Assembly: GCF_014207185.1 (NCBI RefSeq)
Contig: NZ_JACHCP010000012.1
Location: 86,158-110,157, forward strand
Origin: Rhodanobacter sp. A1T4
GTDB lineage: Bacteria > Pseudomonadota > Gammaproteobacteria > Xanthomonadales > Rhodanobacteraceae
DNA length: 24,000 nt
Reading direction: 5' to 3'
A program made the translations under genes and the position numbers. Of this stretch, positions 1-21,638 are shown one piece after another (within the stretch, counting starts at the first letter, position 1; each line of letters opens with the position of its first letter). The notes beneath the pieces were generated by a model that saw only the letters and a program-made list of their open reading frames with translations, ran no database searches and was not told the origin of the DNA.

Positions 1-357
1 TGGCGCGGCATGCAAGTTAGCTACGAGGACAAATTTCCCATTCAAAGCGACCCCTTGGGGCATGACGATGAACTAGATAAAGAGTTCGCTTTGAGAATGA
101 TCTCACAAAAGTCTACAGATTGGCGTTATGAAAAGGAGCGGCGTTTGCTCCATTTTGGATCCTCTAATCTTCTCCTTCCCTATACCCCTAAGGCCCTCAC
201 GGGGGTGATTCTTGGATATCGCTGCGAAGATACAGTGCGTTCCGATGTGCTCAATTTGATTGAGAAGCGCGAGGAGAAATTTGGTTACAAGGTTCGCATA
301 TATCGAGCAACTATGTCAGATAGTCGTTACCATTTTTCCATCAGCCGAGAACGATAA
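1..357 (+). CDS. DUF2971-family protein, C-terminal part (5' end outside the window)
   Basis: Frame 1 is open from base 1, with no stop before the ATG at 10. The stop is TAA at 355-357. The translation has the C-terminal W-x-Y-E-x-E-x-R signature I associate with DUF2971 (KSTDWRYEKERRLL). By eye it aligns with the C-terminus of the 2667..3572 product (PKALTGVILGYRCED vs PEALTAVLLGMRISD). Confidence 0.6.
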   Translation, partial: WRGMQVSYEDKFPIQSDPLGHDDELDKEFALRMISQKSTDWRYEKERRLLHFGSSNLLLPYTPKALTGVILGYRCEDTVRSDVLNLIEKREEKFGYKVRIYRATMSDSRYHFSISRER

Positions 358-803
358 GTTTCAGCACCTCCATTATTGGCCGATTACCGTTCGCGTGCGG
401 GCATCCCTGCTTATGGCCAAGCTAACTGTCTGTGCCGATGGCTGGAAGGCTTTAAAGCCTCGTCGCACCAAAGCACTCAGAGAAGGAGGTTGCGGATGTT
501 TCAGCTGCAGCGATCAGAAGCTGATTGAAGCAGTACGGGCCACGGATAGCGATGAAGTCGGTGTGGTTGGGCTGTACCTCGCCACCAAGTTCACACTGGA
601 ATCGTTCGAAACACCAGAACAACGCGCTTAACCCTTATTCTAGCCTTGCTGGGGCGGCGCACCTTTGCGGATCGTATCGAGCATCTGGTCAACTGACTTT
701 TGGCCTGATCGGCCAACCAATCGCAGATGCTAGCTCGCCGTACCGGCGGTCATGTATTCACAAGGTGATAGTTTTGAAACTCGTCGACACTCAGCCGCTC
801 GAA

Positions 804-1535
804 ATGTACTTGGACACAGCTGATCGCCTACAAGCAGAGGTCAAGATTCGCCAGCCAGAATGGTTTGGCGTGCTCATAGAGCTCGATGCGATCTGGCGAA
901 CCGAACTTTTCGGTGAGGCGACGCACCTTGCTCCTGTACCGGCAAGCATCGTTGTTCAGAGCTTCTATTTTTGGCTTGCTGCCGTGCGAGTGGCGTTGTC
1001 CGGACATGCCACTGCGGTATATCCACTTCTCAGAACTGGGCTGGAGGCCGCTTGTTACGCCTACAAGCTGGTGAAAGATCCGACACTCACGTCGGTCTGG
1101 CTCGCGCGTGATAGAAATGCCGAGAGCCGCAAGAAGTGCAGGCAAGCATTCACCTCGGCCGTATCTGAAGTAGCTAAGTTGCCAGAAATTGATCCTCTTC
1201 TAGGTACCGCCATCCGCGAGATGTACGACGCGTGCATAGACTTTGGAGGGCATCCTAATCCACGCGCATTATTTGATCACCTCAACATGTCGGACAACAC
1301 CGGCAGTGACGCGGTCATGATGAGTATCGTTGGCTTGAATGGTCCAACATCGGTGAATACTGTGCGTGCGCTGGCTGCTGCCGCTGAACACGGATTCTTC
1401 GCCATTATCATCTGCGCCAATGCAACTGGAGACCACCCTCGCGCGGACACCCTTCAGCAACGCCTGGATGCTGTGATAGTGAGGGTTCAAGCGCTGACCA
1501 AACCGTATCTCAACGAGACCCGCAAGACACCGTAG
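804..1535 (+). CDS. hypothetical protein, helical, no family recognised
   Basis: This is the 3' part of track ORF 525..1535. I start it at ATG 804 because the 93 upstream codons are S/P/G-rich and do not look protein-like. GTG 765 and TTG 525 remain possible starts, and no start has a strong SD. It lies 50 nt upstream of the DUF4238 gene on the same strand. It contains R-x5-H (RVALSGH), which is only weakly reminiscent of a HEPN motif. Confidence 0.55.
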   Translation: MYLDTADRLQAEVKIRQPEWFGVLIELDAIWRTELFGEATHLAPVPASIVVQSFYFWLAAVRVALSGHATAVYPLLRTGLEAACYAYKLVKDPTLTSVWLARDRNAESRKKCRQAFTSAVSEVAKLPEIDPLLGTAIREMYDACIDFGGHPNPRALFDHLNMSDNTGSDAVMMSIVGLNGPTSVNTVRALAAAAEHGFFAIIICANATGDHPRADTLQQRLDAVIVRVQALTKPYLNETRKTP

Positions 1536-1585
1536 ACGCTGCCAGGTCGGTTAGATTATTTGCTTAATTAAGTAGGGACACCTCG

Positions 1586-2611
1586 ATGCAGCAGCTGCGC
1601 AAGGACAACCACTACGTACCGAGGCTTTACTTGAAGCAGTGGGCACGCAGCGGAAAGATACCGACTTACCGGCTACTCGTGCCCAGTGGCAACTGCCCTC
1701 TGTGGAAGGATCACTCCATCAAAGGCATCGCCTTTCACCAACACTTGTACACGTACGTTGCCGGCCAAGGAGAAACTGACGAGTTCGAACGCTGGCTAGA
1801 CCGAGAATTCGAAAATCCAGCCGAGGAAGCAATCGACCGAGTTATCAATGATCAGCGACTTACCCCTCAACACTGGAGTCAACTGATCAGATTCCTCGCA
1901 GCCCAAGATGTGAGAACACCGGTGCGACTGAAGGAATTTCTTGCTCGTCAAAGCAAAACACTGCTACCTCTTATAAATGAAACTCTGACCAGTTCAGTCG
2001 CAGAGCTTGAAAAGGCTGCTCGAATTGGAGTCCATTTCTCCGCGCCCAAGAGAGATGTGAACGATCTATTTCCTTTTAAAGTCACCATCGCATCCGATGT
2101 TGACGGAGGAGGCATCATTCGAGCCGAAGCTGTTGCCGGCCGGCAACTCTGGCTCGCCTGTTCCCGACATATGCTGACAAGGACCATCTCGCATTTGATA
2201 GCACACCGATGGACCATCCTTCATGCCCCGGATGGCATCACTTGGCCAACTAGCGACAACCCAGTCATCCGCCTCAATTTCGCGGATGCTTACAACTACG
2301 ATTTCTTGGGCGGCTGGGGGCGCCACAATGGCGAGATACTCCTTCCCCTGAGCTCCAAGCATCTCCTCTACACCAAAATCGGCAACAGCCGGCCTCTCCC
2401 TCGTGGCACTACCTTAAATGAGGATACGGCGAGCCTGGTGCGACGAATGATCATAGAGAACGCCGATCGCTTTGTTTTCGCCCAAGAGGAAGGTGACATT
2501 CACCGGATTCGCCCGCGCACAGTCTGTTCTGAGACCTTCAAGCGCGAAAAGCTCGCCTGGCAGAACTGGCATCAAGAGCAGAGCAAGGTAGAAGCCGACT
2601 TCTTACGTTGA
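1586..2611 (+). CDS. DUF4238 domain protein (same domain family as the single-gene anti-phage system Rst_DUF4238)
   Basis: 341-aa ORF. The N-terminal motif DNHYVPRLYLKQW matches the HHYVP-x-FYL signature that I recall defining DUF4238. The family assignment is from memory, not from a search. Confidence 0.7.
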   Translation: MQQLRKDNHYVPRLYLKQWARSGKIPTYRLLVPSGNCPLWKDHSIKGIAFHQHLYTYVAGQGETDEFERWLDREFENPAEEAIDRVINDQRLTPQHWSQLIRFLAAQDVRTPVRLKEFLARQSKTLLPLINETLTSSVAELEKAARIGVHFSAPKRDVNDLFPFKVTIASDVDGGGIIRAEAVAGRQLWLACSRHMLTRTISHLIAHRWTILHAPDGITWPTSDNPVIRLNFADAYNYDFLGGWGRHNGEILLPLSSKHLLYTKIGNSRPLPRGTTLNEDTASLVRRMIIENADRFVFAQEEGDIHRIRPRTVCSETFKREKLAWQNWHQEQSKVEADFLR

Positions 2612-2666
2612 TTACCTCCCTGCCATTACCCCGCCACTGAGACAGCTACCTGAGGAGTCCGCGTCG

Positions 2667-3572
2667 ATGGCTATCTCCGTTTCTAACTTGTGGAAACCAA
2701 CGCCGCGAGACTTGCGTGAGATCGCCGAGAACATCAAGGCGGCATCAGCCATCTTGGCCATGCCACTTCTCAAGCGCCGAGCGCGCATGGTCGAGCTCGG
2801 CTATCGAAGGCATCTATATAAGTTCCGCGATATTCCGGACGACCGAGGGAAGCGCCAGCGACTAGAGCAGATGCTGTTGAATAACGAGCTGTTTGCCGCT
2901 ACGTCGGATACTTTTAATGACCCGTTTGATGCCCAAGCGGATTACCGTATCGAGCAGCAACGGGATGCTCTGCGTGAGCTGGTTTATCGCTATTTGAGGT
3001 CCCAAGGTGCCCCCGACCACCTTGCTCGGAGCCTGGTAGCTGACGCATTGTTGGACGATTCCGCGGCACTCACTGCGTCCATAAAAGCGAGCCACCAACA
3101 ACTCTTGCAGCAGCTAGGTGTGTGCTGCCTGTCGGAGACCGCTACCGATCCGCTGCTTTGGGCACACTACGCGCAAGATCATTGTGGCATTGCTGTTCAG
3201 TACCGACCGAGCCTAGACCCGATGAGCCTCCAGCCGCATCTGGTCCATTACAATGCTGTGTACCCCATCATCGAAAACTTCTTTGACCGGGAGAAGCGCG
3301 ACATCTTCTCGCCTTTGCTTCGAAAATCTCCGTCTTGGGCGTATGAGCGAGAATGGCGCATCCTTCGCCCCAACGCGCCGAATCGCGCCTTTCAGGTACG
3401 TCCCGAAGCGCTGACCGCAGTGCTGCTTGGCATGCGTATTTCCGACGGCGACCGCGAATACATCCGAGGGTTAGTGGGCGAGCGGAACAAGCGCTACGAG
3501 CTTAAGACCCTAGTCTTCCAGGCAGAAGCTGCTGTGGGCGAATATCGAGTACGCATGCGGCGGCTCCGTTGA
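2667..3572 (+). CDS. DUF2971-family protein
   Basis: 301-aa ORF with a GAGGAG SD 9 nt upstream of the ATG. DUF2971-like motifs are seen in order: LFAATSDTFNDPFD, LWAHYAQDHCGIAVQY, SWAYEREWRIL. It is a paralog of the partial gene at 1..357. Confidence 0.7.
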   Translation: MAISVSNLWKPTPRDLREIAENIKAASAILAMPLLKRRARMVELGYRRHLYKFRDIPDDRGKRQRLEQMLLNNELFAATSDTFNDPFDAQADYRIEQQRDALRELVYRYLRSQGAPDHLARSLVADALLDDSAALTASIKASHQQLLQQLGVCCLSETATDPLLWAHYAQDHCGIAVQYRPSLDPMSLQPHLVHYNAVYPIIENFFDREKRDIFSPLLRKSPSWAYEREWRILRPNAPNRAFQVRPEALTAVLLGMRISDGDREYIRGLVGERNKRYELKTLVFQAEAAVGEYRVRMRRLR

Positions 3573-3913
3573 AGTCATGAGTCCGCCGGATTAGCGGCTT
3601 TCGGCCTGTTGATACACGCCTGAATTTGACAACGCTGCCAAAAAAGAGTCGCCAAGGTTGGCGCCATTCCACCGACTCCAAGCCGACGCGTCACTCAAAA
3701 CCGGAGGTGCGTCGGGCAGTGAATACGTAAAGCGATTGCGTCAGCGCGAACGAGACGGAGCCAAGCAGATTCTTTGACATGGCCACCCGGCTTAATGAAT
3801 TGGTCGAGCAAGCCGATATAGCTGTCAAGTATTGGTCGGCAGTCAGCTCAGACACATGAACCAGACCGACGAAAATTTACCTACATTCGCCGCCCCCTCG
3901 ATCATTATCTTCC

Positions 3914-5158
3914 ATGACTCAGCCACCCGTCGTTGACATCCTGTTTCGCGCCATCCTCAGCGGTGATCAAGCTGCACTCCGTGATCTTGAAACTTATCGA
4001 GCGGCGGAATGCGTCGGCCTTCGTTCCGTGATTAGCACCGATCATGCTGGTGCCGTAGCGTTAGATCTCGGACTCGGTGCGACCTCTAGCATCTATGTCA
4101 CACCATTGTTTGAGGGGCCACGGGCATTTTTTATTTCACGTCATATTAGCGTGCAAGCGCGACTCACCAGCGGGAAAACAACGGTCCCGCTCGACTACTC
4201 CCTCAGCTTCGATTCCAACTTTGCGGAAAAAATGCGCGCCACGCTAAACGGGGAGAAAATTCAACAAGCCGACCACGATCGCGTGATCGAAGTCTTAATG
4301 CTCAAGGCAAAGAACTCTCGGGTGCAGTTCGATGTAGTGCCATTCCTCTACGAGAACGTTCGCTTGGTTCGGGACAATGAAAACAATATGAGGCCTTTGA
4401 ATACCCTGATCGCCTTTCGCATGCTCGATCATCTGAACTGGGAGGCTTTCCGCAACGATCCAAGTAGGTTCGATTTCGGTGTTCCTGCAGACACTCTGAA
4501 AGCGTCACTTCGACCAGACGCGGAAGCCTTTCTTACAGACTTGTTTGCCAACCAGTCGATCGTACATCACGAAGCCAAGAGCCTCGGAATTCAAGCGTTA
4601 CTGCTCCGATTTGCCACGCTGTGGCGAAATCAAAGCAAGCGCGACATCGGCCGTATCCTGCACGAACTACTCCAATTCTGCGTATCAGAACTTGGTTTCA
4701 TTCCCACAACCGAATTGAGCCTGATCTGGAGTGGCATTCGCAACAAAGAAGTCGCCCCTTTTTTTGGACCGGTTATCAATCCTTCGGCCAAACTGTTCAA
4801 GGCAGCTCGCGGCATGGCTTGGGATATGACGCATCTCCGACTCATGGAACAAACCGCCCGCCTTACACAATTCGGTTCATTTTTCATTCCGCACTTCGTG
4901 TCTATTGACGAGCGCTGGCGAACGTTGCTGCGCTTGAACCCCGTGCGTTTCATGGTGGTGGACGATGCAAGGAACAGCATGCTACTGGCGCGAACCCACG
5001 AATTGACGTTTCAAGAGGCACTTCACGAGTGTGCTGGAGAAACCTTTCTTGGAGAGGTTAACGCTGAAAAAATCGAAGCCCGCCGCATGGCAGCACAAAG
5101 CATCGATGTAGCCACCATGCAGCAAAGGGTCGCCAAGGAGGAACAAGCCTGGCGCTAA
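3914..5158 (+). CDS. hypothetical protein (414 aa), no domain recognised
   Basis: Long ORF with protein-like composition. It is preceded by a 341-nt non-coding gap and has no obvious SD. It is convergent with the 954-aa NTPase gene, with 65 nt between the two stops. Confidence 0.6.
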   Translation: MTQPPVVDILFRAILSGDQAALRDLETYRAAECVGLRSVISTDHAGAVALDLGLGATSSIYVTPLFEGPRAFFISRHISVQARLTSGKTTVPLDYSLSFDSNFAEKMRATLNGEKIQQADHDRVIEVLMLKAKNSRVQFDVVPFLYENVRLVRDNENNMRPLNTLIAFRMLDHLNWEAFRNDPSRFDFGVPADTLKASLRPDAEAFLTDLFANQSIVHHEAKSLGIQALLLRFATLWRNQSKRDIGRILHELLQFCVSELGFIPTTELSLIWSGIRNKEVAPFFGPVINPSAKLFKAARGMAWDMTHLRLMEQTARLTQFGSFFIPHFVSIDERWRTLLRLNPVRFMVVDDARNSMLLARTHELTFQEALHECAGETFLGEVNAEKIEARRMAAQSIDVATMQQRVAKEEQAWR

Positions 5159-5223
5159 GCGGTGGTTATGCAAAAGCGTCAATCGAGCAATCCGCTTCCA
5201 ACAGTGCACAACATTGGCGGCAG

Positions 5224-8088
5224 CTAGCTCAGGCCAGAATGGGGGACCGGGTCCACGAATACCCGCTCAACACATGCCCAATAGGCGTGATGTAGCTTAC
5301 TGCCAGAGTCAGTCTTGTCACGCAGATCCTTCAACGGCGGCGCCATCCGGATCAACGCTATGGCTTGCTCTAGCCACCCCCCTTTATCCGTCACTCCAGC
5401 GATTTGACTGATCGCGATATGCATGGCGACAAAAAGTCGGCCTGGCGGTGCGCCACGCTTCATAACGAATGCTCGCTCCATTCGCAGTCGCACGACCTCA
5501 AGCGCTGCAACGCGAAGCGCCTGAAACGATGGCTTTTGTCCAAATTCAGAAACAGCCCCAAGCAGCATGGAACCTATATCTCGGGTTTCAAGTTGCTCAA
5601 GCCAGTCCAGCAACTCCTTTGATGACAGTGAATTGATGTACGCATCGACAAGCTTGGCACTTGAAGCGTCGGCCATACAAACCATCACGAAGAACTCGTT
5701 CCCGGTCAGCGGCTCTTGGTTCTTGGCCATTTTTATTGCCGTAATCCTGTTTTTTATCAAACCCTGCGCCAGAGATTCGAATTCGCATCGCTTGATCTCC
5801 GGATCGGTCAGCAACAAATGAAGCACCGCGATACTCCGGCGACTAAGCCATTCAGCGCTCAAGAGAGGGGCACCTTCATCGGCAAGAAGCCGAAGCAACA
5901 GAGGCCGCCGCATCCAGGCTCGAATGTCAGATCGTTTGAAGGCATCCGCCATCGCAGTCCTGAAGGAGTCAAGTGCCGGTCCATTCCTGAGCAAGCGAAT
6001 CAGCCGACCGTAAAGTTTGGGAACCAGCACATTGAGGTCGCGTAATACCTCCTCTGCCAGATCCGCCTTCAGTTTGCCAAACTTGTTCGCCATTGATGCA
6101 GCGATGCCCTCCGTGCTTATGGAATCAACAAGCCACGCCAGCTCCTTCGGACCCTGCTTGCTAGCCATCCGTATCAGATTGTGAAGCGTACCGACCGGCG
6201 CCAGGCGCGCAGCCATTTCCATACGCCCGGCTTTCGCAGCCTTCTGAAGCGCGACCCAAACTTGCGTCACTTCCTCTGTAAAGCCTTCTCGCTCAGCGAA
6301 CGCCAGGAATGAAGGAAGCCCGATGAGAAAGCGCTCTTGGTTGGCGACGTAAGTAGAAATCTGCGAATTGAGCCTGACCCTGAAGTTCTTCTCCAGCCCG
6401 ACCCTTCGAAAGAGACTGGCAATCGCGCCCGAGTAGCCTGGAGAAAAGCGATCCGAGAACGTCCATGCATCAACGCTCACGCGTTCCAACACGGAGCGTG
6501 CGCGGCTCAAGACCTCATCGGATACAACGCCCTCGCTGGAGTTGGGCAGCAACTGCTGAACGAGGTAGCAAGCTTGGAAGAAATCCTCTTTGATCGCACT
6601 CTCCCACGCGTCGTCCTCCTGCTTTTCTAAGGCTTTCAGGACGAGCGCGCCAATCATGGGATGGGCCAGCCCGTAGCGTAGCTCCTGGTTCTTAGCGCGT
6701 TGCTCGAAGACCCATCCAAGCTTCAGTGAAACTTTAGGAATACGGCCCTGGAGGCTCAATCTCGAAGCCGGAAACTCGAAGCGAGCGCAGTGAGCAATCA
6801 CGGCGAGGACTTCACGCTCGTCCTGCGGTAGCTCATCAGTGTAGTGCGTGCGCAAATAGTCAATGGCATCGCGCTCACGCAGCTTGGGTACGACCCCCGA
6901 CCGGAGGCTATCCTCTGCACCGGCCAGTGCGAGCGAAAAGCTCACCAGGTCTGCATACAGTCCAAGCCACGCCTTAAAATCGGCCGCTGAAGGCTCTGGC
7001 GCACCGTTAGGAAAATTGCGCCGCACCATCAACAGGTAGACAGCACGCAAGTCCTCAGCGCGCAGGCGGAGGAGCATCCGGGCCACGTTCAAATCCCAGC
7101 ATAGGGTCGCGATGTCCGCATCATTCTGCTTCCGCGCCACTGCGAGAATGGCCGGGCGATTGTTTGCATCGACGTGTGCATTCAAGACTTGCTTGAGAAG
7201 CTCTGGCTTTATTCGATGGCAGTTGTCCAAGATGAACAGATGCTGGGCGTCTCCAAATATCTTGATCAGTTGGATCAGTTGAGGACAGATTGCCGCCGGA
7301 TCTGGGTAGTCGCTCATGTCCATGTAGTAAGCGCCGCATCCAGGCTGCCTCTGCCACTGAAATCCGAATGCCGTTGCCAACGTCGTCTTGCCCAAACCGC
7401 TTCCACCTTCGATCAGCATCAACGGGCTAGACTTGAGGCATTCTTGTATTCGCTGAAGGAGATCCTCCGCAACGACAGTGCAGGAATTGAACTCCTCCTT
7501 GATAGGCCCTCTCGCATCGGAAAGAACGCGGAGATCTATGGAGTAAAAGGGAGTGATGTCGATGGGCAACCCGATATCGAACAGCACGCGAAGGTACGCA
7601 GGCTGTTGCAATTCCGCGACCAATTGGTCGAGGAAGATGAACCTAATTCTTGCCGACGGCACCCCAAGCGCCTCAATGTCTGACCTGTATTCTTCAATCG
7701 TCTTCTTCGGCTTGGCTACCCTCTTCCGATTCTGCCTGACCAGTATTTCCTTCTCAGTCATCGTGAAGAGTGTGAATTCTGCAACTCTATTTCCGTCTTT
7801 GATGATCTTATGGATGCCCAGAAGGTCCTCGGAGTCAAGATGAGTGCGCCAGTTACCAGTTGTCGTTTCGATCAAGTACAAGCCCTGCGCGTCGTCCTGC
7901 CCGTATGCGTCTGGATAGCCGATCGTGGTCTGGCTGCGAGTGTTGCGTCCCTGCGGCACGAGGTTTCTGTATGCGTCGCCACGCTGGATCCGCATGAAAC
8001 TCTCGGCAAGCTCCTGGAACTTCCCAGGCGCTGGCTTGAGTCGCAAGATAGCTTCCTTGATGGCGGCCTCAGTCGGCATACCTGACAT
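5224..8088 (-). CDS. STAND/NLR-like P-loop NTPase with an N-terminal nuclease-like domain and a C-terminal helical repeat region
   Basis: 954-aa ORF with a GGAG SD 7 nt upstream of ATG 8088. Walker A is GGSGLGKTT (aa 228-236, nt ~7381-7410). Walker B-like is HLFILDNCH (aa 283-291), resembling the NB-ARC hhhhDD box. The N-terminal ~110 aa show an Mrr/PD-(D/E)xK-like pattern (FQELAES...GYPDAY...LYLIETTT). The C-terminal ~550 aa are leucine-rich and look like HEAT/TPR helices. Confidence 0.7.
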   Translation of the reverse strand: MSGMPTEAAIKEAILRLKPAPGKFQELAESFMRIQRGDAYRNLVPQGRNTRSQTTIGYPDAYGQDDAQGLYLIETTTGNWRTHLDSEDLLGIHKIIKDGNRVAEFTLFTMTEKEILVRQNRKRVAKPKKTIEEYRSDIEALGVPSARIRFIFLDQLVAELQQPAYLRVLFDIGLPIDITPFYSIDLRVLSDARGPIKEEFNSCTVVAEDLLQRIQECLKSSPLMLIEGGSGLGKTTLATAFGFQWQRQPGCGAYYMDMSDYPDPAAICPQLIQLIKIFGDAQHLFILDNCHRIKPELLKQVLNAHVDANNRPAILAVARKQNDADIATLCWDLNVARMLLRLRAEDLRAVYLLMVRRNFPNGAPEPSAADFKAWLGLYADLVSFSLALAGAEDSLRSGVVPKLRERDAIDYLRTHYTDELPQDEREVLAVIAHCARFEFPASRLSLQGRIPKVSLKLGWVFEQRAKNQELRYGLAHPMIGALVLKALEKQEDDAWESAIKEDFFQACYLVQQLLPNSSEGVVSDEVLSRARSVLERVSVDAWTFSDRFSPGYSGAIASLFRRVGLEKNFRVRLNSQISTYVANQERFLIGLPSFLAFAEREGFTEEVTQVWVALQKAAKAGRMEMAARLAPVGTLHNLIRMASKQGPKELAWLVDSISTEGIAASMANKFGKLKADLAEEVLRDLNVLVPKLYGRLIRLLRNGPALDSFRTAMADAFKRSDIRAWMRRPLLLRLLADEGAPLLSAEWLSRRSIAVLHLLLTDPEIKRCEFESLAQGLIKNRITAIKMAKNQEPLTGNEFFVMVCMADASSAKLVDAYINSLSSKELLDWLEQLETRDIGSMLLGAVSEFGQKPSFQALRVAALEVVRLRMERAFVMKRGAPPGRLFVAMHIAISQIAGVTDKGGWLEQAIALIRMAPPLKDLRDKTDSGSKLHHAYWACVERVFVDPVPHSGLS

Positions 8089-8243
8089 CGTCGGTCTCCA
8101 GTTTCTCGATAGATATTGTGTTAACAGGCATCGTAGCGTCGCGCGCGAGCGTCTTTCCTAGCGCTACGGCATTTCAGATTGCGAAGCCGCATTGCACTAG
8201 CACGTTACCCCTCACTTCGGCGCACCTCCCTGGATACTTTCAG

Positions 8244-15430: not shown

Positions 15431-18400
15431 TCAAAGAAAACGCATGTCGCTCGCCTTGCGCAATCGACGCAAGATCAGCAGATGGAAGGCTGCGGGGAGA
15501 ACGAGCATGGATAGCAATGGCGCAGTGAGCATGCCGCCGATCATCGGGGCGGCAATGCGCTGCATCACTTCAGAGCCCGCGCCGTGGCCCAGAAGAATGG
15601 GAAAGAGGCCCGCGAGAATCACGGCGACGGTCATCGCCTTGGGCCGCACGCGCTGTACTGCGCCTTCGCGGATCGCTTCGTCGAGTGCAGCGGGTCCTGC
15701 CTGTGGATCGAGTGTCAGTTGTCGCTGCCATGCGTGGTCGAGATAGAGCAACATCACGACACCAAACTCGGCGGCAACACCGGCCAAGGCGATAAAGCCG
15801 ATCATCGTGGCGACCGACACGGCGTGCCCTAGCAACCAGATCAACCACAATCCGCCCACGAGAGCGAGCGGCACACTCGCCATGATCAGGGCCGCTTCAC
15901 TGGCACGGCGAAACACCGCATAGATCAGCCCAAAGATGATGACCAAGGCAATCGGCACGACAAGTTTGAGCCGCGCCATTGCACTGGCCAGATACTCGAA
16001 TTGACCCGACCAAGCGACCGTGACACCGGGCGGCAACATCACCTGTTTTGCCACCGCTCGTTGCAGATCCGTCACAACAGTGCCGAGGTCACGTCCACTC
16101 GTGTCGATATAGACGTAAGTGGCTAACTGGCCGTTTTCGCTTTTCAGCATCGGAGGACCCATCGTCAACGTGACGTCGGCAATCTGGCCGAGAGTCAGTT
16201 GCGCACCGCTCGCCGCGAGGATCGGTAGCTGCCGTAACGCCGCGACCGAATCACGATCAACCCGTGGATAACGGACGACGATCGGATAGCGTTCTCTGCC
16301 CTCGACCGCTTGCCCGATCGGATCGCCACCCACAACCGTCGCGATCAGCTCCTGGACCTTCTGTTGCGTCAATCCATAGCGCGCTGCGTCTTCGCGACGA
16401 AGATGCACATCGACGTAGCGAGCGCCCTCGGCTCGCTCGGCAATGGCCGAACTCACTCCGGGTACGGTCTTGGCGACCGCTTCGACTTTGTCGGCCACTG
16501 TTTGCAACGTGGATGGATCGGGCCCAAGCACTTTGATGCCGATAGGACTCTTGATACCGGTTGCCAACATGTCGATGCGATTGCGAATCGGTGGCACGAA
16601 GAGGTTCGTCAGTCCGGGCACGTGCACCGCCTTGTCCAGTTCGACTTTGAGCTTCGCCATGGTCATACCGGGACGCCATTGGTCCTTTGGCTTGAAGGTG
16701 ATGGTCGTTTCGAACATTTCCAACGGCGCCGGATCAGTGGCGCTTTCCGCACGTCCAGCCTTTCCGAAGACGTGATCGACCTCCGGCACCGTCTTGATCA
16801 TGCGGTCAGTCAGCTGCAAGATCTGCGACGCTTTGCCAGCGGATAAACCCGGTAGCGCAGTCGGCATGTACAGCAACGTGCCCTCGTCCATGGGCGGCAT
16901 AAACTCGCTGCCTAACTGGGTCAACGGAATGGCCGCACTGAGCAAAATAATCCCGGCCATGAGCAAGGTCATCTTGGGAAAGCGCAGCACGGCATTCAGA
17001 ATCGGTCGATACAGAGCGATCAGGCCACGATTGAGCGGATTATGGTTTTCAGCGCGAATCCGTCCACGCACCAGATACCCCATCAGCACCGGCACCAGAG
17101 TGACCGCCAAACCAGCCGCGGCAGCCATGGCGTAGGTCTTGGTGAACGCGAGTGGCTTGAACAGCTTGCCTTCCTGGCCTTCGAGCGCGAATACGGGCAC
17201 GAATGACAACGCGATGATCAGCAGGCTGACAAAGAGTGCTGGCCCGACCTCAGCCGCTGACTCGGCGATCATCGCCCAACGCGAGGCACCTTGGGGTTCT
17301 TTCCCATCGTTTGCATCGCGCCAATGTTCCAGATGCTTGTGCGTATTTTCGATCATCACCACGGCGGCATCGATCATGGCGCCTATGGCAATCGCGATAC
17401 CGCCCAGAGACATCAGATTGGCCGACACACCTTGCAGATGCATCACCATGAAAGCGGTCAGCACACCCAACGGCAAGGTGATCACCGCGACCAGTGCCGA
17501 GCGCAAATGGCCAAGGAACAGCACGCACACCAACGCAACGACGAGAAATTCCTCCAGCAATTTGCCCCACAGGTTTTCAACGGCGGCATCAATCAGCTGT
17601 GAGCGATCGTAGGTGGGCACTATCTCAACGCCAGGGGGCAAGCTGCGTTTCAGCTCGTCGAGCTTGGCCTTCACGGCGGCGATCGCGGCTTTGGCGTTCT
17701 TGCCTGTGCGCAACACAATCACGCCACCGGCAACTTCGCCTTGGCCATCCAGTTCGGTGATGCCACGCCGAAAACTGGGGCCTCGCCTTACTGTCGCAAC
17801 GTCGCGCAATAGCACCGGCACGCCGCTGGCGTTGATGGTGATTGGCACACGCTCAAAGTCCTCGCTGCTGCGAAGATAGCCTTCGCTGCGCACCATCAGT
17901 TCGGCTTCACCTTGTTCGATCACCGAGCCACCATTCGCACCGTTGGCCTCGCGGACTGCCTCGACCAATTGCGAAATGGTGACGTTGCGGGCGGCTAACT
18001 GATTCGGATCAGGCACGATCTGCCAGGCGCGTTCCATGCCGCCGAGACTTGCCACTTCGGCGACATCCGGAACGGTCTTGAGCTGAAAGCGCAAGAACCA
18101 ATCCTGCAGTGCGCGAAGCTGGCCAATGTCATGTTTGCCCGTACGATCGACCAAGGCGTACTCGTAGATCCAACCCAGACCGGTTGCGTCCGGGCCCAGC
18201 GTCGGGGAGACGCCTGCCGGCAAACGATCGCGTACCTGACTGAGGTATTCGAGTACCCGTGAGCGGGCCCAATAGAGATCCGTGCTGTCATCGAACAGCA
18301 CGTAGACATACGAATCCCCGAAGAATGAATATCCGCGTACCGTCTTGGCTCCCGGTACGGAGAGCATGGTGGTGACCAGCGGATAGGTAACCTGATCCTC

Positions 18401-18583
18401 GACTATCTGGGGTGATTGACCGGGCCAGTTCGTACGTACGATCACCTGGGTGTCGGACAGATCCGGCAGCGCATCAACCGGCGTGTGCAGGGCGGCGAAC
18501 ACGCCAGCAAGCGCCAACGCCAATGCGGCGAGCAGGACAAATACGCGATGCGCGATCGCTGCGCGAATAAGGGCGGCGATCAT
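15431..18583 (-). CDS. cusA: CusA-type heavy-metal (Cu+/Ag+) RND efflux pump, inner-membrane subunit
   Basis: 1050 aa, collinear with recalled E. coli CusA from the N-terminus ([17 protein letters not shown]) to the C-terminus. The three-methionine Cu(I)/Ag(I) site contexts are conserved: [35 protein letters not shown]. These correspond to M573/M623/M672 in E. coli numbering, from memory. Confidence 0.95.
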
Positions 18584-19869
18584 GGGTTTGTCCCCATCGT
18601 CATGCCCGGCATGGCAACGCTGGACGCGGGTGCCGGTGGGTCATCCAGGCGTTCCAATGCGCCGGACAAGCTGGCTTCCGAATCGATGAGGAATTGGCCG
18701 GACACCACTACCTTTTCGCCGCCAGCGAGCCCCTCGAGAATTTCGGTATAGCCCCCTGCCGCGCGTCCTGTGCGAACGGCAATGGCACGGAAATGGCCGC
18801 CGTCTTCGGCAACGATCACGCGCGTGTCGGCGCCCGACGCAATCAGTGCATCGTCGGGCACGACCGGCACAGCCTTGCCGGACGCCGGATCAAGCTGCAC
18901 CGTCGCGAACATGCCCGGACTCAACACCCCGTCGGGATTGGCGAGGACGATGCGCATGTGCTGCGTTCGGGTTGTCATGTCGATGTCGGGTAGCAACGAT
19001 TCGACGTGGCCATGAAATACCTGTCCTGGCAGCGCGTCGATACTCACGGTGACCGGTGTGTCGGCGCGCATCGTGCCGGCCACCGACTGCGGCAAAGCGG
19101 CGTCTACCCATACAGTGGAAATGCCGTTGATCGTCATCAACGTTTGACCCGCGTTGACACGTTGACCTTCACGCACGTCCAGTGTGCTGAGAACGCCGGC
19201 CTGCGGGGCTCGCAACGTAATCTGACCGTTGCTTCCCATCGAACGACTATCCGCCGGAGATAGACCGAGCACCCTCAGGCGTTGTTGCGCCGCGCCGCGC
19301 AAGGCCTTGGCCTCTGTTGATTGCACGTGCTGCAACGCTTGGGCTTCAGCCACGGCGCTGCTCCATTGAGGAGCCAACACGTCGGCGAGAGGCGCACCTG
19401 CCTTGACGCTCGCGTAAGGAGTGCGCACGTAGAGCTTGTTCACCACCGCGTCGACGCGAGCACTGACGACCACAGCCTGACTCAGGTCCCAACCGATTGT
19501 GCCGGGCACTTGTACCGTTGCCGACAGCATGCGGCGCTCAACCGGAGCGGTACGCACGCCGAGGTTTTGTACGGTCGCGGCATCAATGCTTACGGTGTTC
19601 GGGTCAGCGTCGGCGTTGGCGTATTTGGGCACCATCTGCATGCCCATCGACGATAGCCCCGGCTTGTCCGAATGCTGCGCGGGCACCATCGGGTCATACC
19701 AGTACAGCACTTTCGCGGTTGCGGTCTGCGCGGGCGATCCTGTGCCGACAGAATGATCGGCGGACGTTCCATCTTGAGCACCGTCGTGGTGGCGATCTAT
19801 CAAATACGCGCCGACCGCAGTAACCAACAGCCCTGCGAGGATGGAAGAAATCAACAGTGCGCGTTTCAT
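18580..19869 (-). CDS. cusB: CusB-type periplasmic adaptor (membrane fusion protein)
   Basis: 429 aa. [28 protein letters not shown] matches the CusB N-terminal Met-rich metal site region. ATGA overlaps with both neighbours (19866-19869 and 18580-18583) imply translational coupling. Confidence 0.9.
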
Positions 19870-21158
19870 GGAGAATCCCCTTCAGGCAGTAAATAGGTCA
19901 GGGCTGCCCAGGCACGGCCGTAGTCGGTCAACATGCGGGCGTAGTCGGTGTGATGAGTAATTTCGGCACGACGCGCTTCGAGGAGAGGCTCGATGTCGCC
20001 GCCACCCCGATAGGTCGCCAAGGCCAGCGCGGCACGATCGTTGGCTTGCGGTAGAAGCTCGTTGACATGCCGACGCGTCTGTCGTCCCAGCGCATCCCAT
20101 TGCGCCCAACCCGTCTGCACGGCTTCTGCTTGCTGACGCTTCGCGTCGTCGTGCTCTGCACGAACCGCATCCAGATCGGCCGAGCGGGCACTGATGCCGC
20201 GATCCTGTCGATTGCGCGTAAACAGCGGCAACGACACGCCCACCTGGAGCGACACCATGTCGGATAACCCTCGAACACGAGAGCCGTAAGTCAAACCAAC
20301 GCTCCACTCCGGATGCTTCTCGGCCTCAGCCTCGGCCAGCGCAGCTTCGGCTTCCTGCTCGCGTGCAGGCCAGTCCAGGAGATTGCCTTGCCGATCAACA
20401 CTGGTCAGCAACGAGGGCTCGTCATGGGGCAGCACAGAAAAATCGGGCGGATCAGCAAGCGGTTCGGTGACGGGATGGCCCAACCAGCGGCCTAAAGCTG
20501 CGCGAGCCTGGGTCTCGCGTGAGGTCACATCATCGATGCGATTCTCCAAGTCGAGGGCCTCCATCCGCATCGCGAGAACGTCAGCTGCTGATCCGGCACC
20601 CCCTCGCAATCTCGCTTGAGCGACCTCAACATCCACGGCCCACTCGCGTCGCATGGACTGCAGCATCTTCAATTCATGGTGGGCGCCCCAGGCATTTACC
20701 CAGGCATCCGCCACTTGTTGCTCGATCCCTAACCGAGTCATCACCGTGGTCGATGTGGCCTGCTCGACGTTGGCGTCGGCGAGGTCACGCTGGGCTTGGC
20801 GTTTAGCCCTTGATGGCAGCACCTGTGTAAGCCCCACCGTGCGCATCGTCATCGTGTCCCCACCGGCTGTAAATGCACCCGCTCCCTGGATAGCGAGATT
20901 GTCGATACCGACGGAAAGCTGCGGATCCGGCAAGGCGCCGGCACGCGCGGCCTCCTCATGGGCCGATTGCTGTTGGGCGTAGCGTGCCTCCAGCAATGGC
21001 GCTTGCGAGGCTGCTTGCCGTGTCGCGGTTTCCAGCGTTAGAGGTGACGCCGGATCGTCAGCCCAAGCAGGCGACACGAAGAAAATAGCGGCGGCCATCA
21101 ATAGGCAACGCCGAACACGGACCGACAAGGTCCGCGTCAAGATTTGTTGGCAAAACAT
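19866..21158 (-). CDS. cusC: Outer-membrane factor of the HME-RND system (CusC/CzcC, TolC family)
   Basis: I start it at ATG 21158 (Met18 of the track ORF), which has GGAG 6 nt upstream. The signal peptide ends ..SPAWA-DD and has no lipobox Cys. The CzcC-like motif GALPDPQLSVGIDNLAIQG is present. Confidence 0.85.
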   Translation of the reverse strand: MFCQQILTRTLSVRVRRCLLMAAAIFFVSPAWADDPASPLTLETATRQAASQAPLLEARYAQQQSAHEEAARAGALPDPQLSVGIDNLAIQGAGAFTAGGDTMTMRTVGLTQVLPSRAKRQAQRDLADANVEQATSTTVMTRLGIEQQVADAWVNAWGAHHELKMLQSMRREWAVDVEVAQARLRGGAGSAADVLAMRMEALDLENRIDDVTSRETQARAALGRWLGHPVTEPLADPPDFSVLPHDEPSLLTSVDRQGNLLDWPAREQEAEAALAEAEAEKHPEWSVGLTYGSRVRGLSDMVSLQVGVSLPLFTRNRQDRGISARSADLDAVRAEHDDAKRQQAEAVQTGWAQWDALGRQTRRHVNELLPQANDRAALALATYRGGGDIEPLLEARRAEITHHTDYARMLTDYGRAWAALTYLLPEGDSP

Positions 21159-21230
21159 GGATAGCTCCGATGACAAGACCGTACGGGCCATGCACGCAGG
21201 CATGACCACCGAATGGCTAGCAATCGAGGG

Positions 21231-21638
21231 CTAAATCAGAAGGGTGCAGAACCGCAACATGGGCGGTGGATCAGAGCGATACTTCGAAATGCTTGGCAAT
21301 GCTCTCAGCGCAGGCGCGCTGGCGCCCAGTAGAGCGGGCGACTGCGAAGGTAACAAGACAGGGGGCACCGTCAGGGCATGCGCGTCCTGAGAAGAAGTCA
21401 CGTTGTTACTGCAGTGCTCAACGCACCGAAGATCCGACGTGACATGAACGTGAGCGAACGATACCTTCGAGCCTGTCCGCATCGCGGCACATTCACCCGT
21501 CAAGGCAGCATGCGCTGGTACCGTCGGGAGTGTGCAGACATAGCTAGCCATGGCCAGCTGCTGAAAAAACAGACAAAACAATACCGCCCATACCCAAAGG
21601 GCACGGCGACGGCGACTGAGGTAGTAAGGCCTGTTCAT
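21231..21638 (-). CDS. small membrane-anchored Cys/His-rich protein, first gene of the cus operon (CzcI/DUF2946-like guess)
   Basis: 135 aa. The N-terminus has basic residues then a TM segment (RRRRALWVWAVLFCLFFQQLAMA). It contains 6 Cys and 6 His, including FAHVHV and CVEHC. It lies 21 nt upstream of cusC on the same strand. The family assignment is a guess. Confidence 0.6.
   Translation of the reverse strand: MNRPYYLSRRRRALWVWAVLFCLFFQQLAMASYVCTLPTVPAHAALTGECAAMRTGSKVSFAHVHVTSDLRCVEHCSNNVTSSQDAHALTVPPVLLPSQSPALLGASAPALRALPSISKYRSDPPPMLRFCTLLI

Follow-up and report, generated by a model that had tools for sequence, protein, structure and literature searches.

A single DUF4238 gene taken from an Escherichia coli P2 hotspot protects strongly against phage T7 (PMC9122126), a defence known as Rst_DUF4238, and Aristaios, a single 316-aa lactococcal DUF2971 protein with an ADP-ribosyltransferase (ART) fold, has an abortive-infection (Abi) phenotype (PMC11381338). 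A separate survey counts DUF2971 proteins, with their ExE motif and conserved Y, among the DarT/AbiGi-like ARTs, and they have been proposed as secreted effectors too (PMC12522546); in PADLOC, the defence-candidate family PDC-S31 is a single-gene candidate. Here we analyse a 24,000-nt stretch of the genome of Rhodanobacter sp. A1T4 (the window), in which a DUF4238 gene and a DUF2971 gene follow a gene of an unnamed family, gene X, all on the plus strand (the trio, 774–3572). Two of the proteins encoded here are 100% identical to NCBI entries of this strain. The original prediction for this locus was right that DUF4238 is a validated single-gene defence, and proposed that the trio might be a multi-gene variant of it with the flanking genes as co-functional partners, or alternatively a set of independent neighbouring defence genes. 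It missed that the DUF2971 family, too, has been validated as an Abi gene acting alone (Aristaios, PMC11381338) and that the trio is part of a larger island block. The neighbourhood evidence supports the alternative: with a probability of roughly 0.8, the trio represents three separately mobile single-gene modules, carried as cargo by an island that spans at least 8 kb and was acquired horizontally, and not a dedicated three-component system.

The data show both the juxtaposition of the three genes and their independent mobility, and the reach of DNA homology is the most telling evidence (coordinates in Table 1). The window is homologous to solo copies of the DUF2971 gene (L025/L026) over 2646–3569, i.e. 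the gene and 21 nt upstream of it, whereas homology to two further copies (L027/L028) begins inside the gene, at 2861, and homology to the Dyella subtropica DUF4238 gene covers 1592–2612 only. Outside a single metagenome contig of 3.2 kb (L029), DNA homology never exceeds a single gene. The trio recurs only in this contig, at 92.6% DNA identity (95.5% for X, 93.3% for DUF4238 and 91.1% for DUF2971), and L029 is thus the element lineage of the window and not an independent recurrence. About 230 nt after the trio the L029 sequence jumps to a homologue of window 8291–8421 (71% identity), which belongs to a repeat cluster at the end of the island, and the intervening 4.6-kb segment with two further genes, ORF414 and a STAND-like NTPase gene, is absent (window 3715–8290 versus L029 2985–3072). 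Cargo has thus been inserted or deleted between two closely related elements, and its content varies even at this short distance.

The gene neighbourhoods of the three families agree with this. The original prediction had proposed neighbourhood conservation of DUF4238 homologues as a check, and partners were found in 0 of about 20 DUF4238 contexts, in 0 of 3 DUF2971 contexts and, for DUF4238 and DUF2971 each, in 1 of about 85 X contexts; DUF4238 orthologues thus show no recurrent linkage to X or DUF2971, the outcome that the original prediction had itself named as refuting a co-functional trio, nor is there any in the reverse direction, and recurrent co-occurrence of all three genes across divergent lineages was not observed. 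The DUF4238 sample comprised 17 genome loci (39–81% identity), 2 plasmids and 2 metagenome contexts (84% and 75%), amounting to about 20 distinct contexts, and was screened with subfamily-specific DUF4238 and DUF2971 hidden Markov models (HMMs), an X-family HMM and tblastn. Across these orthologue contexts (39–84% identity) we found no X, DUF2971, ORF414 or STAND gene, and neither all-versus-all BLAST nor Pfam applied to 103 neighbours revealed a conserved neighbour; the surroundings are SIR2, Gabija and RmuC genes mixed with housekeeping genes. For DUF2971, three mutually unrelated contexts were read, with orthologues at 90%, 84% and 62% identity, and none of them has a DUF4238 or an X gene.

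For gene X we considered 7 close, 80 metagenome and 3 plasmid loci, using a narrower X alignment, as the broad one is too diverse for locus finding. A word-indexed search returned 11 relatives, and seven contexts were read: X follows type II CBASS (cyclic-oligonucleotide-based antiphage signalling) operons in L001 and L003/L004, overlaps a KfrA_N gene next to AbiJ in L002, follows OLD/UvrD Gabija-like genes in L005, overlaps a DUF5677 gene in L006 and lies near a TIR/SEFIR gene in L007. By tblastn, none of these seven loci contains a DUF4238, DUF2971, ORF414 or STAND gene. The members in the 80 metagenome loci are 23–41% identical to X and have no conserved neighbour except among near-duplicate contigs, and with Pfam no family was found in more than two of 150 X-family neighbours. 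Among about 85 X contexts there is one adjacent DUF4238 gene (L083, Pfam 2.2e-37) and one adjacent DUF2971 gene (L073, 6e-11), both on the opposite strand and convergent with X. ORF414 and the STAND gene were also considered as true partners of X and rejected, as neither has a homologue in any X, DUF4238 or DUF2971 locus; the 410-aa gene that follows X in L005 was tried as a relative of ORF414 and gave no match. Across the contexts of the three families, known defence systems are abundant, namely CBASS, Gabija-like genes, SIR2, AbiJ, TIR and type I restriction-modification (R-M).

All three trio genes are real and have homologues, and the DUF4238 and DUF2971 assignments made earlier hold; both genes score above the cutoffs of their Pfam families. 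The DUF2971 gene matches PF11185 at 27.9 bits (cutoff 22) and four PADLOC PDC-S31 models, with 3.9e-45 (the best), 1.9e-32 and 3.8e-29 among the E-values. Across 19 sequences W224, Y226, E227, E229 and R231 are invariant and H167-Y168 at least 90% conserved, and the protein carries the ART-like combination of a conserved Y (motif II) and ExE (motif III) as defined in PMC12522546. From its Aristaios and DarT-like relatives, we propose as the most likely role of DUF2971 that of an abortive-infection toxin, ADP-ribosyltransferase-like and acting alone, which after infection would modify DNA or an essential protein via the conserved Y...ExE site. It shares with Aristaios and PDC-S31 the DUF2971 domain, a length of about 300 aa, a single-domain architecture, the strong PDC-S31 match, the conserved Y and ExE, and solitary occurrence elsewhere; it differs from Aristaios in host and replicon and in that the island holds two DUF2971 paralogues, a comparison made by family and description only. 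The appropriate reading of DUF2971 is that of an ART-like Abi family already known to act as a single gene (Aristaios/PDC-S31), and not that of an unknown partner.

The second paralogue, of which the window holds the 3′ part, matches the Pfam DUF2971 model weakly but retains the W-x-Y-E-x-E motif (DWRYEKERR) and is about 25–32% identical to the trio gene and its orthologues; the two paralogues flank X and DUF4238. As a separate observation, the 84% orthologue in L027 (2073–2939) differs in its N-terminal ~45 residues, with DNA homology starting only at the internal position given above, which suggests recombination within the gene, and a Mu-type transposase lies beside it.

The DUF4238 gene matches PF14022 with 98.6 bits (cutoff 27, E 5.5e-28) over profile positions 2–279 of 281. 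Its subfamily, with proteins of about 340 aa, is well populated: members come from Pseudomonas, Stenotrophomonas, Burkholderia and their relatives, and they are common in Pseudomonas as well as in Xanthomonadales and Burkholderiales. A search gave 547 matches, the best 120 of the 547 being 53–94% identical. Compared to the validated E. coli TA007 protein (pFR101; sequence taken from the supplement of PMC9122126) it is 20% identical by BLASTP (E 1e-5), and the two align collinearly over their full length (hhalign probability 86%, E 4.7e-6), with an N-terminal H-(H/Y)-(F/V)-x-x-x-Y-L-K motif, RTP and TSDNP in common. On sequence grounds the window protein is thus of the same family as the validated protein, but distant and in a different subfamily. 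Its AlphaFold2 (AF2) model is confident (mean predicted local distance difference test score, pLDDT, 90.7), and Foldseek finds nothing in the PDB that matches it significantly. The gene resembles Rst_DUF4238 in its full-length PF14022 match, its collinearity with the validated protein and the occurrence of its orthologues, which are solitary in variable contexts; unlike Rst_DUF4238 it is cargo of a chromosomal island in a Xanthomonadales-type host and not of a P2 hotspot, and its identity is only that 20%. Most likely it defends on its own, as Rst_DUF4238 does, and the ~340-aa subfamily is worth testing, given its low identity to the validated protein and a confident predicted fold with no solved relative.

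For gene X, TTG 774 is the most likely start, because the NCBI model of the Rhodanobacter sp. A1T4 gene is 253 aa long, its homologues start with MK(L/F)(V/I) in register with this codon, and AAGGTG lies 6 nt upstream. The earlier start (ATG 804, giving 243 aa) is thus probably not the true one; the RVALSGH motif noted with it is present. Neither X itself nor the wider family matches any NCBIfam or PADLOC model, and X has no match in Pfam; it does match PHROG 36906 (7.8e-28). A profile search against 1.84 billion representatives recovered 1,494 clusters (50% identity, E ≤ 1e-3), a lower bound on family size, and nearly all of these are single-domain proteins of 240–265 aa. Relatives occur in 25 plasmid records, every one annotated as hypothetical; none was found in viral contigs, and tblastn of X and of DUF4238 against a phage collection gave no match for either. 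X marks a large family, carried in defence islands, plasmids and prophages, that is uncatalogued in Pfam, NCBIfam and PADLOC. An uncharacterised helical protein, X travels alone through mobile elements and defence islands.

Across 138 family members G77, R87, E91, G158, H160 and P161 are invariant, with conservation of 95% or more at Y95, W109, R112, Y151, I155 and N162. R87, E91 and Y95 lie on one helix and, together with G-x-H-P-N at 158–162, form an enzyme-like constellation, R-x3-E-x3-Y ... G-x-H-P-N. Apart from a single beta hairpin, the AF2 model (pLDDT 84.7) consists of helices, and it has no significant match in the PDB or BFVD; its sole domain-like Foldseek match is the HEPN protein 1ufb, at a non-significant E of 1.2. 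The R-x5-H motif had been taken as a hint of HEPN, but this hint is weak: R72 is R in 110 members (80%) and H78 is H in 100 (72%) and Q in 30 (22%), and no HEPN Pfam model matches the family. As the R-x4-6-H motif is not invariant and the invariant residues are elsewhere, a HEPN identity of X is poorly supported. We rejected membership of X in DUF5677 (PF18928). This family, helical and itself uncharacterised, is enriched in the vicinity of defence-marker recombinases. It resembles X in being helical and about 250–350 aa long, and 13 of the 138 members match it weakly (best 3e-4); these matches are sub-threshold, the window X has none at E<0.1, an hhalign comparison of one DUF5677 protein with the X profile was negative, and one assayed DUF5677 ORF was not reported active.

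Some further features of the X-family loci can be noted. A DUF5677 gene adjoins the X-family gene in two unrelated loci (L006 4928–6001, L112 3826–4617), an adjacency that fits the weak sequence similarity of the two families, and some loci have two X-family paralogues in tandem or nearby (L064/L065, at 4087–4758 and about 5001–5672; L050; L080). X-family genes tend to close a short same-strand run, with the downstream gene usually convergent (L030–L109, L002, L006, L111). On crude open reading frame (ORF) calls, 34/46 loci have a co-oriented ORF closest upstream of X, and in 30/49 the closest ORF downstream lies on the other strand; 18 upstream ORFs lie within 100 nt, and several overlap the X start by 4 nt (e.g. 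L002, L006, L111). The genes upstream have no detectable similarity to one another. Tentatively, the family could be one of widespread ~250-aa helical proteins with a new function in defence islands or mobile elements, either a stand-alone anti-phage enzyme or, more unusually, a conserved partner at the end of the run, in translational coupling with upstream genes that keep changing. The residual novelty of the locus lies in the X family and the DUF4238 subfamily; only X is a new lead, and the trio is otherwise of known kinds.

Several observations weigh against reading the trio as independent modules. The three ORFs do share a strand with gaps of only 50 nt (1535 to 1586) and 55 nt (2611 to 2667), as originally described, and promoter and terminator scans predict neither a sigma-70-like promoter nor an intrinsic terminator in either gap, so co-transcription, and with it an operon, is possible. 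The trio is intact in L029 while the adjoining segment differs, which could mean that the block is kept as a unit. In addition, the close DUF2971 sample is small (three distinct contexts), the metagenome X loci are often short, with usable flank on a given side in about 40–50 of 80, and PADLOC-DB 2.0.0 gives no match for the window DUF4238, for which defence activity would be an extrapolation at only 20% identity to the validated protein. If the trio were a lineage-specific functional operon, with X, DUF4238 and DUF2971 as its sensor, effector and immunity components, the arrangement on one strand, the short gaps without terminators and the collinearity of the block in L029 despite the missing ORF414 and STAND genes would be accounted for. 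We nevertheless consider such an operon very unlikely, since the block recurs in only a single copy, at 92.6% identity, each of the genes also occurs on its own elsewhere (62–90% identity) with homology confined to the gene, and both named families act as single genes experimentally. The trio genes may be co-transcribed simply through juxtaposition; short gaps and a shared strand in a defence island do not make a system, and a tempting false lead is thereby removed.

Two other explanations concern the roles of the genes rather than their grouping. X might be a promiscuous accessory partner (an antitoxin, regulator or sensor) of whichever toxin or defence gene is adjacent, here DUF4238 or the upstream DUF2971. 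The same-strand upstream ORFs, often close and in several cases overlapping by 4 nt, are what this would lead one to expect, and the neighbours of X include CBASS, AbiJ, TIR, RES, PIN, DUF4238 and DUF2971. However, the ORF calls behind the first point are crude, the upstream genes lack mutual similarity, a 417-nt gap lies upstream of X in the window, the DUF4238 gene of L083 and the DUF2971 gene of L073 are convergent with X and not co-oriented, and invariant enzyme-like residues are atypical for a simple antitoxin, all of which makes a partner role for X unlikely. It is likewise improbable that the trio genes are non-defence accessory cargo of a mobile element, e.g. effectors or addiction modules. 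We infer the defence function of each trio gene from family membership and context, and the distance of DUF4238 from its validated relative, the proposal of DUF2971 proteins as secreted effectors (PMC12522546) and the finding that a DUF5677 ORF assayed in Enterococcus was not among the active candidates all leave room for non-defence cargo; on the other hand, the contexts are rich in CBASS, Gabija-like, SIR2, AbiJ, TIR and type I R-M genes, the PDC-S31 defence-candidate match is strong and both Pfam families have validated members. Three single-gene modules of defence type, assembled as island cargo, thus account best for the locus.

Table 1. Features of the trio and of the surrounding island, in window coordinates
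Feature	Coordinates	Strand	Description
Second DUF2971 / PDC-S31 gene, 3′ part	1..357	+	PADLOC PDC-S31 1.1e-15, profile positions 153-256/259; cut by window start
Gene X	774..1535	+	253 aa, all-helical; from a large family without a name, with weak similarity to DUF5677
DUF4238 gene	1586..2611	+	341 aa; distant relative of the validated single-gene defence Rst_DUF4238
DUF2971 / PDC-S31 gene	2667..3572	+	301 aa; ADP-ribosyltransferase-like; Pfam family shared with Aristaios
ORF414	3914..5158	+	414-aa protein, island cargo; no family match
STAND-like P-loop NTPase gene	5224..8088	-	954 aa, island cargo; convergent with ORF414; weak matches
Repeat cluster	8244..8449		At least 5 direct and inverted copies of the ~16-nt CACAYACTTTG(G/C)T(T)GTC

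The trio lies within a low-GC island of at least 8 kb that also holds the second DUF2971 gene, ORF414, the STAND-like NTPase gene and the terminal repeat cluster; the guanine-plus-cytosine (GC) fraction of its genes is 0.46–0.57 versus 0.58–0.62 in the core genes beyond 8.7 kb. ORF414 has no match in Pfam, PADLOC, NCBIfam, PHROG or the PDB. Its plasmid homologues with 52–60% identity lie between PLD/helicase and SIR2 genes (Ralstonia), and others adjoin a zeta toxin and DUF4041 (Enterobacter). The NTPase has weak, below-cutoff matches to AAA_22, nSTAND_NTPase5, NACHT and nSTAND3 around residues 196–320 and a PADLOC PDC-S01 match at 3.7e-4, and behind its Walker-A region, GGSGLGKT, the C-terminal part is long and helical. 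Although no hit reaches a curated cutoff, the protein is likely a STAND-type (Avs-like) defence NTPase. The repeat motif gives 4 matches versus 0.27 expected by chance and none elsewhere in the 24 kb, and a 24-nt inverted repeat lies within the same cluster. GC climbs here from 0.52–0.57 to about 0.60, placing the boundary between island and core genome at the repeats, which may be a transposon or integrative-element end with multiple recombinase-binding sites. Rfam, tRNA, promoter and terminator scans of the island found nothing.

The island resembles known swappable-cargo islands, such as the P2/P4 hotspots and the cargo regions of integrative elements, in being a low-GC, defence-type block in which homology stops at or near gene ends, in the presence or absence of a 4.6-kb segment between two 92%-identical elements and in its repeat-rich boundary beside core genes. 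It differs from them in that the window contains no integrase, transposase or tRNA. Beyond 8.7 kb the window continues with ordinary genes: TetR, an FAD monooxygenase, AraC, a hydrolase, DUF4142, an aldo-keto reductase, a Cus-like RND (resistance-nodulation-division) efflux operon and a cyclophilin. The Cus-like heavy-metal efflux operon (15431–21638, minus strand) encodes a 447-aa outer-membrane factor, a 429-aa membrane-fusion protein and a 1050-aa RND pump, with a small 135-aa ORF upstream, and is an ordinary operon unrelated to the trio.

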